Source: Eledone cirrhosa (taxonomy: Eukaryota). From it: DNA of 64,000 nucleotides. Positions 1 to 20,200 of the stretch are shown here, one piece after another. Each line of letters opens with the position of its first letter. Positions within the stretch are counted from its first letter, which is position 1. The position numbers and the translations under genes were made by a program. Location: NCBI GenBank assembly GCA_964016885.1, contig OZ024766.1, positions 17,360,001-17,424,000 of the forward strand. Direction: 5' to 3'. The notes beneath the pieces are model-generated. The model did not search any database. It was not told the DNA's origin and saw only the letters and a list, made by a program, of their open reading frames with translations.

Positions 1-35
1 TGAGTAAATTGTAGTTAGTAGCGGTGATAATGGTT

Positions 36-307
36 AAGAAATATCCGCGATGTGGCGAGGATTACTGCTATGGGAAATTAGATACGTTCCAAAGAAATAT
101 CCGCGATGTGGCAAGGATTACTGCGATAGGAAATTAGATACGTTCCAAAGAAATATCCGCGATGTGCCGAGGATTACTGCGATAGGAAATTAGATACGTT
201 CCAAAGAAATATCCGCGATGTGGCAAGGATTACTGCTAGAGGAAAGTAGATACGTTCCAAAGAAATATCCGCGATGTGGCGAGGATTACTGCTGTAGGAA
301 ATTAGAT
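36..307. repeat. 56-bp tandem repeat, about 5 copies (short arrays also near 3903-4007 and 7144-7248)
   Basis: Unit aagaaatatccgcgatgtggcaaggattactgctataggaaattagatacgttcca; the motif recurs at 38, 94 and 150. Confidence 0.95.
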
Positions 308-14200: not shown

Positions 14201-17200
14201 GTGAGGAAGGATGAGAACAAGGGGGATGACATAAGTAACTTCAGGCCCATAACTCTGCTAAATACAGAGTTAAAGATTTTGGCCAAGGTGTTAGCGAAGA
14301 GGTTGGCGCTTGTCGTTGGAAACCTGGTGGGAGCAGCGCAGACATGCGCAATCCCGTCCAGGTCCATTCACGACAATCTCCACCTTATGCGATACATCAT
14401 AGAGAGGGTAGGGAATGAACCCGGCTTTGGTGGGGCCCTGATCAACTTGGATCAATCTAAAGCTTTCGATAGGGTTGACCATCGTTACCTGGATGCGGTG
14501 CTCGCGGCGGCAGGCTTCGGACCCGTTTTCAGGGGTTGGATTGCTGCGATGCACAGCAGCAACGTCTGCTCAAGGGTCAAGGTGAACGGCCACCTCTCGG
14601 AGCCGTTCCAAATCATGCGATCCATCCGACAGGGATGCCCTCTCTCCTCCCTACTGTATGTGCTGGCTCTTGAGCCACTACTGCGGAAGTTGGAGCGGTT
14701 GCAGGGCATCCCTTTGGAACCGGGATTGCAGAAAGCGGCGTCGGCCTACGCCGATGACGTGACAGTAATGGTGTCGAAAACCTCGCAAATCGGTGAGATC
14801 GGCACCTTACTGGAGGAATATGAAAGGTTTACAGGAGCCATGCTGAACCGGGACAAGTCCGTCGGTTTGCAACTCGGAACATGGAGAGGCAACCCGATGC
14901 CCTCCAACGACGTCGTCGGACGCTGGACGGAGGGCCCGGTGAAGCTGCTTGGGGTCTGGTTCGGACCAGACCTCCAGGTGGAGAAAAACTGGAACGAGGT
15001 AACGGCCAGGGTGTTTGCACTCACCCAGAAGTGGGCCTAGTGCAAAATATCCCTGAAAGGTCGAGCGGAGGTGGCGAATACTTATATAGCATCCGTCATC
15101 TACTACCGCTTGACCGTCGTGCCTTGCCCAGTGAAAAGACTCGCCAAAATGGAGTGCGCGCTGTTCCAATTTCTTTGGAACAAGCGGACCCCTTTGGTGA
15201 GGAGATCCATCTGCTGTCAACACCCTTCGAAAGGAGGGCTGGGGATGCCGTGGCTACAGATGCGTAAACACGCATTAAGGCTACGGCACCTCCAGGTATT
15301 CCTCACCGGTCAACCGGTGTGGGCCCCGTTTGTGAGGCGAGCCTTTCCCAGACTCGTCTCGCTCACCGAGCTGCAATCCTGGGTCAAGCAAAGACCGAAA
15401 AAAGTGGGTGACTGGCACATTGAATGTGCCCAGGCGCTCACGGCCCTCTGGAAAGCGGACCCGGCAATCAGTGGAGACTCCACCTCGACATTCTATAGAG
15501 GGTTGGTACGCAGCAGGTACGACGATGCTCTCGGAGAAGCTCTAGGCATGGAGGAAGATGAACTAGCCAGTCTGTTCGGTAGGACGTTTGGCCCTGGACC
15601 GATGGACAACTTCCAAAAGTCCCTGGCTTGGCAGTGCTACCGAGGGGCTCTACCCGTTCGAGACAAGCTCCACAGGCATGGGAGCCTAGGTAGAGATCCT
15701 TTGAATAAGATCTGTCCGAGATGCGTGCATGATGACGAAACCGTTGCGCACGCATTCGTACACTGCCCAGGCATTGCTGACCTGTGGGGCTATGTGGAAC
15801 GACTACTGTCGAGGGTGGGACCAATCCGGTTGACCACCGAGTCCATTGTCACGATCAAACCGCCTCCCCCTTTCAAAAACGAAGGAGAGGCGGTTTTTCT
15901 CTGTGTGATAGCCATGGCTAAAGAAGTTGTATGGTGGACGAGGCTGAAAGGGCTGAGGTCAGACACCTTTCTCTCCGGCCAACAACTGGTCCCCTTTTTC
16001 AAATACCATTTTAAAAGAAGGATCAGAATGGAGAGAGAGGTGCTCTACCCCAGCAAGTTTTATGAAAGGTGGGTGAAAGTAGGGAGAATGGCCAGAGTTT
16101 GTGCTCCTGAGGAGAAGGGTTGCACATTTTTTCCGGGGTGTGTGCGACCCATGTTAATGCCCCCTCCCTATTGAGGACTTCGTTTGTTGTTGTTATTTCA
16201 TTGTTATATTTTTGTACTCGTTAATTATATGTAAACTTCCCCCCTTGTATCTGTCCCTACCTTTTGTGCCCTAGTGGCAAATAAAGTAACCACTCTATAT
16301 ATACTATTAAAACCCACAAGCAGGTAATACATACATCTCTGTCTCTCTCCATATATATATATATATATATATATATATATATATAGGAACGAGTAGGACC
16401 CCGACGGCAGAGCTCAAGCCGTTTCGACGGCTATTTCTGGACTGAATTAGTCCAGAATTAGTCGTTGAAATGGCTTGAGCTCTGCCGTCGGGGTCATACT
16501 TGTTCCTATTACCCATTCTACTACCTTAAGTATTGAGTACTTTGGTACGTTATGGTCCATTTGGTTCCTTACCACATTTCCTTCGTTATATATATATATG
16601 TATATATATACATACACACATACATACAGGATGTCCCCCTAAAATGGATACACTTTTTATGAGAATGCTGTTGAAGTGTGCATGCGTTTTTGGGGGACAT
16701 CCTTGCATATATACACATACATGCATATATATATATATATATATATGTTATCTTGTGAGTAAATTGTAGTTAGTAGCGGTGATAATGGTTAAGAAATATC
16801 CGCGATGTGGCAAGGATTACTGCCATAGGAAATTAGATATGTTCCAAAGAAATATCCGCGATGTGGCAAGGATTACTGCTATAGGAAATTAGATATGTTC
16901 CAAAGAAATATCCGCGATGTGGCAAGGATTTCTGCTATAGGAAATTAGATATGTTCCAAAGAAATATCCGCGATGTGGCAAGGATTTCTGCTATAGGAAA
17001 TTAGATACGTTCCAAAGAAATATCCGCGATGTGGCAAGGATTACTGCTATGGGAAATTAGATACGTTCCAAAGAAATATCCGCGATGTGGCAAGGATTAC
17101 TGCTATAGGAAATTAGATATGTTCCAAAGAAATATCCGCGATGTGGCAAGGATTACTGCTATAGGAAATTAGATATGTTCCAAAGAAATATCCGCGATGT

Positions 17201-20200
17201 GGCAAGGATTACTGCTATAGGAAATTAGATATGTTCCAAAGAAATATCCGCGATGTGGCAAGGATTACTGCTATAGGAAATTAGATACGTTCCAAAGAAA
17301 TATCCGCGATGTGGCAAGGATTACTGCTATAGGAAATTAGATACGTTCCAAAGAAATATCCGCGATGTGGCAAGGATTACTGCTATAGGAAATTAGATAT
17401 GTTCCAAAGAAATATCCGCGATGTGGCAAGGATTACTGCTATAGGAAATTAGATATGTTCCAAAGAAATATCCACGATGTGGCAAGGATTACTGCTATAG
17501 GAAATTAGATATGTTCCAAAGAAATATCCATGATGGAGCAAGGATTACTGCGATAGGAAATTAGATACGTTCCAAAGAAATATCCACGATGTGGCGAGGA
17601 TTACTGCTATGGGAAATTAGATACGTTCCAAAGAAATATCCGCGATGTGGCGAGGATTACTGCTATAGGAAATTAGATACGTTCCAAAGAAATATCCATG
17701 ATGTAGCAAGGATTACTGCGATAGGAAATTAGATACGTTCCAAAGAAATATCCGCGATGTAACGGGACCGCGATATAGCGGGGGATTACTGTATATAGTT
17801 TAAATGATTAGTATCACAGCTGGAAATTAAATGTATTTGCCTTTTGCCTACCTTTACAATTTCTGACAGAACCTGTCCATCCATTACAACATTTACGGCA
17901 GAATCTGCAGTTAGAAGATTTATTGTTGTATATAAGTACAGCGGAATAACAGTATGAGAGATTACATAATGCAGAACAAGAATATAACAGAAAAAATAAA
18001 TAGCAAACACTAAGATGTTGATTCTTAGACTGTCGAATAACAGACATGAGTTGTTCAAGTATTACCCACACTGTGATACTACTCTGGTGGAGCTAAACAC
18101 TTTACATCATAATTTTACGTAATAACCTTTGTTATGTTATGTTCCATTAGATATATGGTAAGAACCTTTGTTAAGTTATGTTCCATTAGAAATATGGTAA
18201 TGAAAGGGTTAAAGTGTTTATATTTAGCTGAAGAATATGCCATCATCATTTTATGTAAGAACCTTTGTTAAGTTATGTTCCATTAGAAATATGGTAATGA
18301 GAGGGTTAAAGTGTTAATATTTAACTGAAGAAAATTCCATCATCATTTTATGTAAGAACCTTTGTTAAGTTATGTTCCATTAGAAATATGGTAATGAAAG
18401 GGTTAAAGTGTTTATATTTAACTGAAGAAAATTCTATCATCATTTTATGTAAGAACCTTTGTTAAGTTATGTTCCATTAGAAATATGGTAATTAAAGGGT
18501 TAAAGTGTTTATATTTATCTAAAAAACCTTCCATCATCGTTTTATGTAAGAACCTTTGTTATGTTATGTTCCATTAGAAATATGGTAATGAGAGGGTTAA
18601 AGTGTTTATATTTATCTAAAAACCTTCCATCATAATTTTATATAAGAACCTTTGTTAAGTTATGTTCCATTAGAAATATGGTAATGAAAGGGTTAAAGTG
18701 TTAATATTTATCTAAAAACCTTCTATCATAATTTTATATAAGAACCTTTGTTAAGTTATGTTCCATTAGAAATATGGTAATGAAAGGGTTAAAATGTTTA
18801 TATTTAACTGAAGAAAATTCCATCATCATTTTATGTAAGGACCTTTGTTAAGTTATGTTCCATTAGAAATATGGTAATGAAAGGGTTAAAGTGTTTATAT
18901 TTAGCTGAAGAATATTCCATCATCATTTTATGTAAGGACCTTTGTTAAGTTATGTTCCATTATGGTAATGAAAGTATTGAGATTTAGCTTACCTGATAAC
19001 TGAACACCTTCTACCAGGTATGCACCAAGGATTATTCTTGAAACAAGGATAGGTACAGATTTTTCGTGTTCCAAGTCTCCATCTAATTTTAGGAATAAGA
19101 AGAATTACAAATAAAAGAAATTGGAGTCCAACTCCTCCTTTTCCTCAAAGTCTTTAAAGTAACGTTACTTGATAGAGTGTGTAGCTCGGAGATCAGAGAG
19201 ACACTCCAGGTAGAGCTGCTACTTCTCTGAATTGAGAGATCACAGCTCTGATACTATGGACATGTGGTTAGAATGTCTCAGGAAAGAATCTCTGGAGAGT
19301 CACTCCAGGTAGAGCTGCTACTTCTCTGAATTGAGAGATCACAGCTCTGATACTATGGACATGTGGTTAAAATGTCTCAGGAAATAATCACTGGAGAGTC
19401 ACTCCAGGTAGAGCTGCTACTTCTCTGAATTGAGAGATCACAGCTCTGATACTATGGACATGTGGTTAGAATGTCTCAGGTAAGAATCACTGGAGAGTCA
19501 CTCCAGGTAGAGCTGCTACTTCTCTGAATTGAGAGATCACAGCTCTGATACTATGGACATGTGGTTAGAATGTCTCAGGTAAGAATCACTGGAGAGTCAC
19601 TCCAGGTAGAGCTGCTACTTCTCTGAATTGAGAGATCACAGCTCTGATACTATGGACATGTGGTTAAAATGTCTCAGGAAATAATCACTGGAGAGTCACT
19701 CCAGGTAGAGCTGCTACTTCTCTGAATTGAGAGATCACAGCTCTGATACTATGGACATGTGGTTAGAATGTCTCAGGTAAGAATCACTGGAGAGTCACTC
19801 CAGGTAGAGCTGCTACTTCTCTGAATTGAGAGATCACAGCTCTGATACTATGGACATGTGGTTAGAATGTCTCAGGAAAGAATCACTGGAGAGTCACTCC
19901 AGGTAGAGCTGCTACTTCTCTGAATTGAGATATCACAGCTCTGATACTATGGACATGTGGTTAAAATGTCTCAGGAAATAATCACTGGAGAGTCACTCCA
20001 GGTAGAGCTGCTACTTCTCTGAATTGAGAGATCACAGCTCTGATACTATGGACATGTGGTTAGAATGTCTCAGGTAAGAATCACTGGAGAGTCACTCCAG
20101 GTAGAGCTGCTACTTCTCTGAATTGAGAGATCACAGCTCTGATACTATGGACATGTGGTTAGAATGTCTCAGGTAAGAATCACTGGAGAGTCACTCCAGG

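Follow-up and report, generated by a model that had tools for sequence, protein, structure and literature searches.

Gene layout and predicted protein

The window (the whole stretch of DNA analysed, 64,000 nucleotides) carries a predicted minus-strand animal gene whose product would be secreted or exposed at the cell surface, with its EGF-repeat part lying within blocks of satellite DNA (Table 1). In transcript order, a signal-peptide exon is followed by X2 and X3, which encode an eight-cysteine cationic domain, and then by five EGF exons, E5 to E1. This exon chain, which we infer to be joined by splicing, yields an open frame of 293 codons with matching phases and GT-AG sites starting at either of two first exons, and the frame leaves the window at its left. 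The 3' end of the gene lies outside the window, left of position 1. While the initial annotation captured the anatomy of the EGF exon array, it overlooked the exons at the 5' end of the gene, the second copy of its first exon and the signal of selection described below.

Table 1. Predicted exons and repeat features, in positions of the window.
Feature	Position	Strand	Remarks
Lead with 4.9 copies of 56-mer (putative additional unit)	1..309
Repeat unit 1 (48-mer to 56-mer)	308..4007		E1 inside
48-mer array, 37.4 copies	308..2099		also 4007-5367, 7248-7920
cbEGF exon E1	2141..2263	-	net charge -3; without O-fucose consensus
72-mer array, 14.4 copies	2432..3430		also 5701-6651; about one unit 10669-10740
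Palindrome, 127 bp, 99-bp core 3503-3601	3489..3615		cores also 6750-6848, 16397-16495
MITE-like element, 78 bp	3733..3810		terminal inverted repeats; also 6980-7057, 16627-16704
Repeat unit 2	4007..7248		E2 inside
cbEGF exon E2	5409..5531	-	net charge -1
Repeat unit 3	7248..17760		E3-E5, 108-mer arrays and LINE inside
108-mer units and arrays	7924..10316		bound the E3/E4/E5 triplication
cbEGF exon E3	8075..8197	-	net charge +6; Lys replaces Glu of Ca-binding motif
cbEGF exon E4	8670..8792	-	net charge +6
cbEGF exon E5	10360..10482	-	transcript's first EGF exon; net charge +5
Broken L1/Tx1-like LINE	10741 to about 16291	+	antisense to gene; inserted in 72-mer array
56-mer array, 17.3 copies	16791..17760		ends in single-copy sequence, the duplicated region's outer edge
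Exon X3	17852..17904	-	53 nt, phase 2-1, CCxGW motif; shifts frame to phase 1
Exon X2	18993..19082	-	90 nt, phase 2-2, 4 Cys; opening part of cationic 8-Cys domain
Mariner-like copy M1	21534..22342	-	truncated; in intron 1
First exon copy A	33412..33533	-	ATG, signal peptide (hydropathy peak 3.4), Ser/Thr/Pro linker, phase-2 donor
Mariner-like copy M2	36621..37429	-	hybrid: left flank M3-like, right flank M1-like
First exon copy B	53220..53341	-	ATG, hydrophobic signal peptide, phase-2 gtaagg donor
Mariner-like copy M3	59804..60606	-	upstream of exon copy B

As first annotated, all five EGF exons are 123 nt long and in phase 1-1, with a ctccag acceptor and a gtaagt donor. A length divisible by 3 and phase 1 at both ends make them symmetric class 1-1 modules, the textbook state of calcium-binding EGF domains. 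Their core splice sites are indeed identical, but E3 and E4 differ in the branch-point region and have an upstream AG at about -35. Every exon, at 35-42 bits, clears the 27-bit threshold of Pfam EGF_CA and has the six-cysteine spacing 6-5-8-1-10. With respect to the calcium-ligand consensus of such domains, C-x-D/N-x4-F/Y-x-C is present in all five and D/N-x-D/N-E/Q in four, E3 being the one that deviates; an O-fucose consensus is likewise found in all exons except E1, so that single repeats have lost individual features. The best matches in a fold comparison of the model were EGF domains, all of them weak (E above 0.001). No further EGF exons were found elsewhere in the window. Along the transcript, three basic EGFs adjoin the cationic domain and are followed by two acidic ones.

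The N-terminal domain contains 12 Lys/Arg and no Asp/Glu residues. Candidates of the X2 type numbered two in the real interval versus one across 30 shuffled copies, and X2 and X3, each scanned separately, returned no Pfam family and no relevant PDB match. No close homologue of the predicted protein was found; its nearest named protein matches are large multi-EGF bivalve proteins, while the top PDB sequence match (E=1e-21) is an EGF-TM7 receptor, aligned in the generic EGF repeats.

The two first-exon copies differ at 13 of 122 nt, 9 of these within the last 19 nt, and the 5' regions around them are 98-99% identical over several kb. The introns behind them share only transposon-type matches beyond about 75 bp. 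Copy B could be an alternative first exon or an orphaned duplicate. The duplication likely arose by crossover between copies of an element that is mariner-like in its motifs: M2 has the hybrid structure expected from a real crossover between M1 and M3.

Repeat units and duplication history

The array was initially divided into blocks starting at 1, 3868 and 7109, and a 60-bp lead does recur at these positions, and again at 16756, with 98-100% identity. The block composition described then also holds. The 99-bp palindrome core and the MITE-like element occur in all three blocks, the 48-mer is present in 37.4, 28.4 and 14.0 copies and the 72-mer in 14.4 and 13.4 copies. Block 3 has roughly one 72-mer unit plus a stub and additionally contains the nested exon triplication (E3-E5) with the 108-mer and a LINE insertion. 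The 56-mer arrays comprise 4.9, 1.9, about 2 and 17.3 copies, and the 108-mer arrays 3.1 and 13.8. The unit boundary, on the other hand, has to be moved: since all three units carry the same 56/48 junction, the mechanistic unit opens with the 48-mer and closes with the 56-mer rather than starting at the lead. In this phase the lead and 56-mer at the left edge of the window belong to another unit, whose exon would sit left of the window. The suggestion that satellite copy numbers vary independently is not demonstrable with three blocks, in which 48-mer and 72-mer counts share their rank order and the 72-mer was lost from block 3 where the LINE sits.

The 48-mer descends from the SINE-like repeat that is common in the window, to which it aligns with scores of 98-110 (maximum after shuffling, 36), and the extension of the palindrome to 127 bp corresponds to z=-19 relative to 200 shuffles. 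The LINE encodes endonuclease, reverse transcriptase (RT) and zf-RVT domains, with a CCHC knuckle at 11856 and an ORF2 from 12692 that is interrupted by stops at 13364, 13430 and 15038; it thus has the L1/Tx1 domain set (ORF1 zinc knuckle; ORF2 endonuclease, RT and C-terminal zinc finger). At its ends neither a target-site duplication nor a poly(A) was found, an AATAAA is present, and the junction lacks part of the 72-mer, either 8 nt or 8 nt together with whole units. Near-identical LINE copies (99.3%) are present.

The proposal that unequal crossing-over at satellites shaped the array was borne out for exchange between cassettes. Cassette genealogy switches across the 72-mer array, with changes private to block 3 more frequent next to the exon (15 of 209 sites) than in the tail (5 of 424; p=1e-4), indicating that such exchange occurred, and aligning the 48-mer arrays of block 1 and block 2 leaves gaps that correspond to whole units (47, 48, 288 and 48 nt). 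It does not extend to the first duplication in each case. Both junctions lie in or at satellites, but the sequences that they join are unlike (the 56-mer meets the 48-mer, and the acceptor flank meets the 108-mer), and hence they were not like-with-like satellite crossovers. One-off non-homologous joins at satellites may have started each duplication, with later cassette copies arising via unequal crossover.

Divergence of exons and their flanks

The coding parts of most copies differ several-fold more than the adjoining DNA, and the likely cause is selection for varied binding surfaces. E1 and E2 differ at 11 of 123 exon sites versus 12 of 618 in flanking DNA (p=4e-4), with a single difference in the 211 nearest flanking sites. 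For E1 and E5 the corresponding values are 23/123 and 10/208 (p=9e-5), or 30/123 and 17/209 in a three-way alignment (p=7e-5), and for the first-exon copies 13/122 and 22/2158 (p=8e-9). The excess is not significant for E3/E4 (4/123 versus 0/73, p=0.30) or E4/E5 (8/123 versus 3/71, p=0.75). Base composition does not explain it, since within the 5' duplication a CpG-rich transposon of 49% GC shows differences at only 13 of 803 sites and only 7 of 34 variable sites are CpG.

Among the EGF exons, a sample of five 40-codon sequences from one assembly, at least 34 changes alter an amino acid and 5 are silent, and pN exceeds pS in all ten pairs, which are not independent of each other. A codon model gave omega 4.2 over all 40 codons (LRT p=0.007 with F1X4, 0.03 with F3X4) and 5.8 over the 27 non-consensus codons (p=0.001 and 0.008), so that omega=1 was rejected in all four model tests, while a simple count was weaker (p=0.05 with kappa set to 2 and 0.12 with kappa set to 1). 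Fold residues are spared: the 13 consensus codons took one of the 34 changes, against an expected share of 35% (p=1e-5), these codons having been picked post hoc, with the alignment already seen, from the cbEGF consensus. Outside them, 22 of 27 positions vary. Several changes cluster within codons, and these, like the concentration of first-exon differences in 19 nt, could be single events.

We favor, with a probability of roughly 0.58, an explanation in which a single EGF exon and its introns were copied five or more times, the likely mechanism being unequal crossover, and the copies were likely pushed apart by diversifying selection in a recognition or binding role. The diversified EGFs would then offer differently charged binding surfaces to a variable partner (microbe, gamete or glycan). 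The product is best read as a putative recognition or adhesion protein that is young, restricted to its lineage and subject to diversifying selection. Its domains are equally compatible with a structural matrix protein.

An ordinary young array in a gene for a matrix or adhesive protein whose constraint has relaxed, with fold residues conserved, the remaining sites drifting (omega about 1) and gene conversion making the introns look younger, is an unlikely account of these data. It is in keeping with the small sample, the counting test (p=0.05-0.12), the bivalve matches and the homogenisation observed in the tail; silent exon divergence is also somewhat above that of introns (p=0.05-0.18), so part of the exon/intron contrast may reflect intron homogenisation. 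However, it has to face four rejections of omega=1, it would need conversion to halt at both splice sites between E1 and E2, and the same exon-centred excess is seen in the independent first-exon duplication.

Neither symmetric EGF exons nor tandem arrays of exons with introns are out of the ordinary, and the selection signal is more unusual than the skippable architecture that the initial annotation emphasized. All 32 exon subsets are indeed in frame and stop-free, but this property is inherited from copying one phase 1-1 exon and is therefore no evidence of alternative splicing. That the main role of the array is combinatorial exon skipping combined with satellite-driven length alleles, perhaps with palindromes pairing between introns and looping exons out, is similarly doubtful. 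The exchange across the 72-mer and the altered branch region of E3 and E4 would suit such a role, as would published descriptions of splice-varied repeat number in the EGF-TM7 family (PMC4419612) and bindin (PMC5712786). Palindrome copies would pair slightly better together (-189 to -194 kcal/mol) than as two local hairpins (-184 to -189 kcal/mol), but this 4-5 kcal/mol advantage takes no account of what closing a 3-10 kb loop would cost, or of the prior formation of local hairpins. All five acceptors are pyrimidine-rich (17-18 of 22), the donors are consensus, and skipping leaves the substitution pattern unexplained.

A more elaborate scheme, which we regard as quite improbable, is a lineage-specific hypervariable recognition locus, probably from a cephalopod, with two promoters whose first exons give the mature protein different N-termini, an array able to expand and made of positively selected EGF cassettes with opposite charges, and RNA-level cassette choice via pairing between the identical palindromes of successive introns. 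If true, this three-level locus would parallel bindin or Dscam with EGF domains as its building blocks, and would serve in gamete, immune or self/non-self recognition; no comparable repertoire locus in cephalopods was found in the literature searched.

It is very unlikely that alleles were set in tandem by a partial assembly artefact, chiefly in the second first-exon region. The identity of the 5' regions is at an allele-compatible level, but the cassettes have specific shared junctions and 1-7% differences, M2 is the hybrid expected of crossover, and the introns behind the two first exons are unlike. Were these copies alleles, their exon-centred excess would point to balancing selection. Least probable of all is exon-limited gene conversion from genomic paralogues or reverse-transcribed mRNA that brought older variants into exons only: the differences are clustered and end at exon borders, and LINEs with near-identical copies are at hand, but conserved donors predict silent-rich imports, yet 34 of 39 changes alter the protein, the window holds no other EGF exon to donate, and the exons are nearly tree-like, as the 4 incompatible site pairs among 190 all involve one single site.

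Relation to known systems

Tandem symmetric EGF exons are common, and the architecture alone is therefore of modest interest. Nimrod, Eater, Draper, EMI-domain and fibrillin-type N-terminal proteins combine a CCxG(Y/W) motif with a basic N-terminal region. The predicted protein may resemble them in its basic N-terminus and in the CCxGW motif of X3 directly before the EGF array, but its repeats are EGF_CA and not NIM-type as in Nimrod. EGF-TM7/ADGRE receptors are characterised by a GAIN/GPS domain and a seven-transmembrane region. Two of them, CD97 and EMR2, are described as having N-terminal tandem calcium-binding EGFs that bind chondroitin sulfate, with isoforms differing in EGF number (PMC4419612); the additional N-terminal cysteine domain sets the present protein apart. 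In "OVERMEGA" exon-intron megasatellites, an exon-intron segment is reported to be duplicated and tandemly amplified, with introns decaying first and the repeat persisting in exons (bioRxiv 10.1101/2021.07.19.452908). The array described here has at least 3 contiguous tandem units of at least 90 bp crossing exon-intron junctions, as in that class, but its exons are more diverged than its introns.

Among ascidian vitelline-coat proteins, HrVC70/HrVC120 and HaVC80 are described as having a signal peptide, tandem EGF repeats, variable loops and O-fucose sites, with a repeat gained by duplication (12 versus 13), and proteins of this type as carrying a ZP domain at the C-terminus, being expressed in the gonad and being polymorphic among individuals (PMC9265791). 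The signal peptide followed by tandem EGF repeats, repeat gain through duplication, variable loops, and the O-fucose consensus in four of five, are shared here; the present repeats arose far more recently and follow an eight-cysteine CCxGW domain. Sperm bindin of the Pacific oyster, a mollusc gene as the present one probably is, is reported to have tandem domain repeats under positive selection, recombination in repeat-rich introns that carry a retroelement and microsatellites, and demonstrated splicing variants and sperm function (PMC5712786). Our locus parallels it in likely positive selection among repeats (omega 4.2, p=0.007-0.03; count p=0.05-0.12), intron recombination (genealogy switch over the 72-mer) and a retroelement and satellite repeats in introns, although its repeats are EGF whereas those of bindin are F-lectin.

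The youth of the locus exposes each step, from first junction through later exchange to the probably transposon-mediated duplication of the first exon and the disappearance of a calcium ligand and an O-fucose site from single repeats, and makes it a concrete candidate for population and expression work. In two separate duplications within the same gene, exons have outrun the introns beside them, which points to a molecular arms race, and the comparable loci described in oysters (PMC5712786) and ascidians (PMC9265791) are gamete-recognition or immune genes.

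Satellite cassettes and their duplication history

The initial annotation described recurring blocks of satellites, an EGF exon, a palindrome and a MITE, and remeasurement reproduced this layout together with the satellite counts, a LINE and five 123-nt EGF exons. A 60-bp lead repeats at positions 1, 3868, 7109 and 16756. Copy numbers from Tandem Repeats Finder were 37.4, 28.4 and 14.0 for the 48-mer satellite, 14.4 and 13.4 for the 72-mer, 4.9, 1.9 and 17.3 for the 56-mer, and 3.1 and 13.8 for the 108-mer; a script added about one 72-mer and about two 56-mer copies in block 3. 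The palindrome has a 99-bp core inside a 127-bp hairpin and is followed in all three blocks by a 78-bp MITE-like element. The Pfam EGF_CA cut-off is passed by 5 of the 5 EGF exons (E1-E5, with E5 first in the transcript). As first framed, this architecture is ordinary.

Coordinates of the gene's exons, the repeat units and the broken LINE in the window
Feature	Position	Strand	Remarks
Repeat unit 1	308-4007
Repeat unit 2	4007-7248
Repeat unit 3	7248-17760
E1	2141-2263	-	123 nt, phase 1-1
E2	5409-5531	-	123 nt, phase 1-1
E3	8075-8197	-	123 nt, phase 1-1
E4	8670-8792	-	123 nt, phase 1-1
E5	10360-10482	-	123 nt, phase 1-1
X3	17904-17852	-	53 nt, phase 2-1, CCxGW motif
X2	19082-18993	-	90 nt, phase 2-2
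Signal-peptide exon, copy A	33533-33412	-	gene 5' end
Signal-peptide exon, copy B	53220-53341	-
Broken LINE	10741 to ~16291	antisense to gene	without target-site duplication

All three cassettes share one 56-mer/48-mer junction and the 56-mer array at 16791-17760 ends in single-copy DNA, so the repeat unit runs from the 48-mer to the 56-mer; bases 1-309 are probably part of a further unit whose exon would lie off the window. A junction between acceptor flank and 108-mer is common to E3 and E4 and absent from E5. From the cassette and E3/E4 junctions it follows that each first duplication joined unlike sequences at a satellite, while later copies would have arisen by unequal crossover across the whole unit. 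Exchange took place between cassettes, and its trace is a drop across the 72-mer in the changes private to block 3, which occupy 15 of 209 positions next to the exon vs 5 of 424 on the far side of that array (p=1e-4). The 48-mer arrays of blocks 1 and 2 carry a shared, collinear series of variants, and their lengths differ by entire units. The earlier proposal, satellite-driven unequal crossing-over that would produce length alleles and exon skipping as a possible source of isoforms, is partly supported: the crossing-over gains from the exchange across the 72-mer and the whole-unit differences, but it does not extend to the first duplications, with their joining of unlike sequences.

The 48-mer derives from a SINE-like repeat of the window. 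The window's repeats probably resemble octopus SINEs, which hints at an octopus-like source; a literature search for the motif turned up no paper. The SINE-like repeat has spawned minisatellites repeatedly, namely a 49-mer array (30127-31215), the 48-mer arrays (308-2099 etc.) and a 113-mer (52093-52324). Kinship of the 108-mer with the 48-mer was rejected (alignment score 26, shuffled maximum 32).

Other repeats are abundant. An RTE-like LINE, presumably of the RTE clade, is present in three copies that are 99.3% identical (45066-48200, 32206-33300, 56463-58058) and encode an endonuclease, a reverse transcriptase and, after it, a PHD finger; their identity indicates recent activity. Members of a related but older family are found at 44456-44918 and 51523-51913. 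Penelope-like elements at 22692-26101 and 37759-39500 include a GIY-YIG match (38764-39198) and, at 24865-25461, three 100% identical 198-bp tandem units within the reading frame. Additional palindromes of 120 bp, nearly perfect, and elements bounded by terminal inverted repeats of 107 bp occur at 26166-26290, 35405-35526, 58809-58930 and 35288-35771, and two opposed 81-bp arrays (60781-62307) meet at about 61290 in a palindrome whose arms measure about 0.5 kb. The introns of the EGF gene are thus rich in long hairpins, which could be candidate substrates for RNA editing.

Gene model and duplicated first exon

Reading beyond the original block located the 5' end of the gene at a signal-peptide exon, with two short exons, X2 and X3, between it and the EGF exons. 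The chain of signal exon, X2, X3 and E5 to E1, whose splicing is predicted, comprises 293 stop-free codons and ends in phase 1, and the gene runs on to the left of the window, beyond position 1. Cys-rich phase 2-2 exon candidates numbered 2 in the real interval, whereas 30 shuffled copies of it yielded 1. The predicted mature N-terminal domain is 68 residues long and includes 8 Cys, and its Cys-rich part carries 12 Lys/Arg and 0 acidic residues. A 97-mer array (8.3 copies, 18158-18962) and a 99-mer array (20.5 copies, 19196-21229) closely flank X2, so that every exon of the gene adjoins a minisatellite; X2 and X3 are single-copy despite this.

Word-based searches with E5, with X2 and with E1, E2 and the signal exon found no close relative, which is weak evidence. 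E5 matched 2 of 2 candidates among longer proteins, one of them an oyster EGF and IgGFc-binding protein (63% identity); pooled E1, E2 and signal exon matched 1 of 14, weakly, a clam Notch-like protein (E=0.75); and X2 with 10 intronic codons gave zero candidates, a blank that is likewise weak evidence. The best score of X2 in the ESM Atlas was 0.84, with a recognition value under threshold, and the small Cys-rich peptides matching it there were rejected as chance. PDB sequence searches returned only RING fingers for X3 (E 0.37-0.97) and no match for X2, and none of three comparison proteins matched the N-terminal domain (best E 3.9).

A second copy of the first exon, together with the sequence upstream of it, lies at 53.1-60.6 kb. 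Copies A and B both retain the ATG, signal peptide and phase-2 donor, and either leads into an open frame. Of three mariner-like copies, at 21.5, 36.6 and 59.8 kb, the middle one is like the third on its left and like the first on its right, with a switch near 37.2-37.35 kb, the pattern that unequal crossover between the outer copies would produce. A purine-rich AAG-type satellite (22-25 bp unit) directly precedes each ATG (33566-34295, 0.73 kb; 53374-55780, 2.4 kb), with TATA-like boxes beyond it at 34460 and 55936; because no GT(A/G)AG donor is present between TATA-like box and ATG, the satellite may lie in the 5' UTR. The long satellite upstream of copy B contains one ATG, at 54794. A low-complexity GGT/GTT array (62523-64000) has three open frames on the minus strand and, if translated, would give Thr- or Pro/Thr-rich sequence; it was rejected as a mucin exon of the EGF gene, being upstream of both ATG exons.

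Divergence of the exons

Several duplicated exons differ more than the DNA around them: E1 and E2 at 11/123 positions vs 12/618 in adjoining DNA (p=4e-4), E1 and E5 at 23/123 vs 10/208 in the flank (p=9e-5; 30/123 vs 17/209 in a three-way alignment), and the first-exon copies at 13/122 vs 22/2158 (p=8e-9). In the last pair 9 of the 13 differences fall within 19 nt; restricted to the first 100 nt, the comparison yields p=0.026. The excess was not significant for E3/E4 (p=0.30) or E4/E5 (p=0.75). The RTE-like LINE copies were left out as a neutral control because they are independent insertions. CpG or GC mutability was rejected as the cause of the divergence. Mosaic exons were rejected as well, since incompatibility is confined to 4 of 190 site pairs and a single site accounts for all of them. 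A tally by eye of the 34 exon sites that vary (2141-10482) gave, on the coding strand, about 14 A/G differences to 6 C/T differences. Faster change in exons than in introns is a feature of some venom genes; literature searches on this returned nothing.

Among the five EGFs we count at least 34 changes that alter an amino acid and 5 that are silent; a counting test gave p=0.05 with kappa set to 2, as measured for non-coding duplicates, and p=0.12 with kappa set to 1. A codon model gave omega 4.2, with omega=1 rejected (p=0.007 under F1X4, 0.03 under F3X4), and omega 5.8 (p=0.001 or 0.008) for the 27 non-consensus codons, 22 of which are variable. The 13 consensus codons, a list set from the general calcium-binding EGF consensus after the alignment was inspected, took 1 of 34 changes vs 35% expected (p=1e-5), and this sparing indicates that the EGF exons are under constraint for their fold. 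Relaxed constraint combined with intron conversion is an unlikely account. At silent sites the exons are still a little more diverged than the introns (p=0.05-0.18), and homogenisation of the introns may therefore contribute to the difference between exon and intron. The changes are patterned in their chemistry: net charge is +5 or +6 in E3-E5, with three His each, -3 in E1 and -1 in E2; a calcium ligand is lost in E3 and the O-fucose consensus in E1. We see here a moderate signal of diversifying selection, found twice at the locus, along with a first-exon duplication that was probably transposon-mediated.

Proposed role and known systems

We favour, with a probability of a little under 0.6, a young extracellular protein for recognition or adhesion. 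Its cationic head, made up of the 8-Cys domain and three basic EGFs, would sit on a stalk of calcium-stiffened EGFs, repeats would be added through unequal crossover, and selection would drive them apart against a variable, probably anionic partner. That exon skipping is instead the main role seems improbable. The five EGF exons share their core splice sites and are all of phase 1-1, and any subset stays in frame, as the initial annotation held and as 32 of 32 subsets do; palindrome pairing between introns would be about 4-5 kcal/mol better than local pairing before loop costs; however, the splice sites are uniformly strong. An assembly error is very unlikely, and exon-limited conversion from elsewhere slightly more so. 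The rival readings are not fully exclusive of each other.

No description of such a locus was found in the open-access literature searched, and "EGF" has zero occurrences in the main text of the octopus GPCR paper (PMC6408891). EGF-TM7 receptors, a precedent for EGF-exon skipping (PMC4419612), are the best PDB match, a generic one. The exon-intron megasatellite (bioRxiv 10.1101/2021.07.19.452908) is defined in a way that covers this locus, but its model expects introns to decay first, whereas the locus shows the reverse. The locus also resembles ascidian HrVC70/HaVC80 (PMC9265791), in which a signal peptide precedes tandem EGFs that are variable and include a repeat gained by duplication. In oyster bindin (PMC5712786), tandem domains are varied by positive selection, intronic recombination and splicing; the locus would resemble it in mode of working and differs in domain type, and so is not a bindin.
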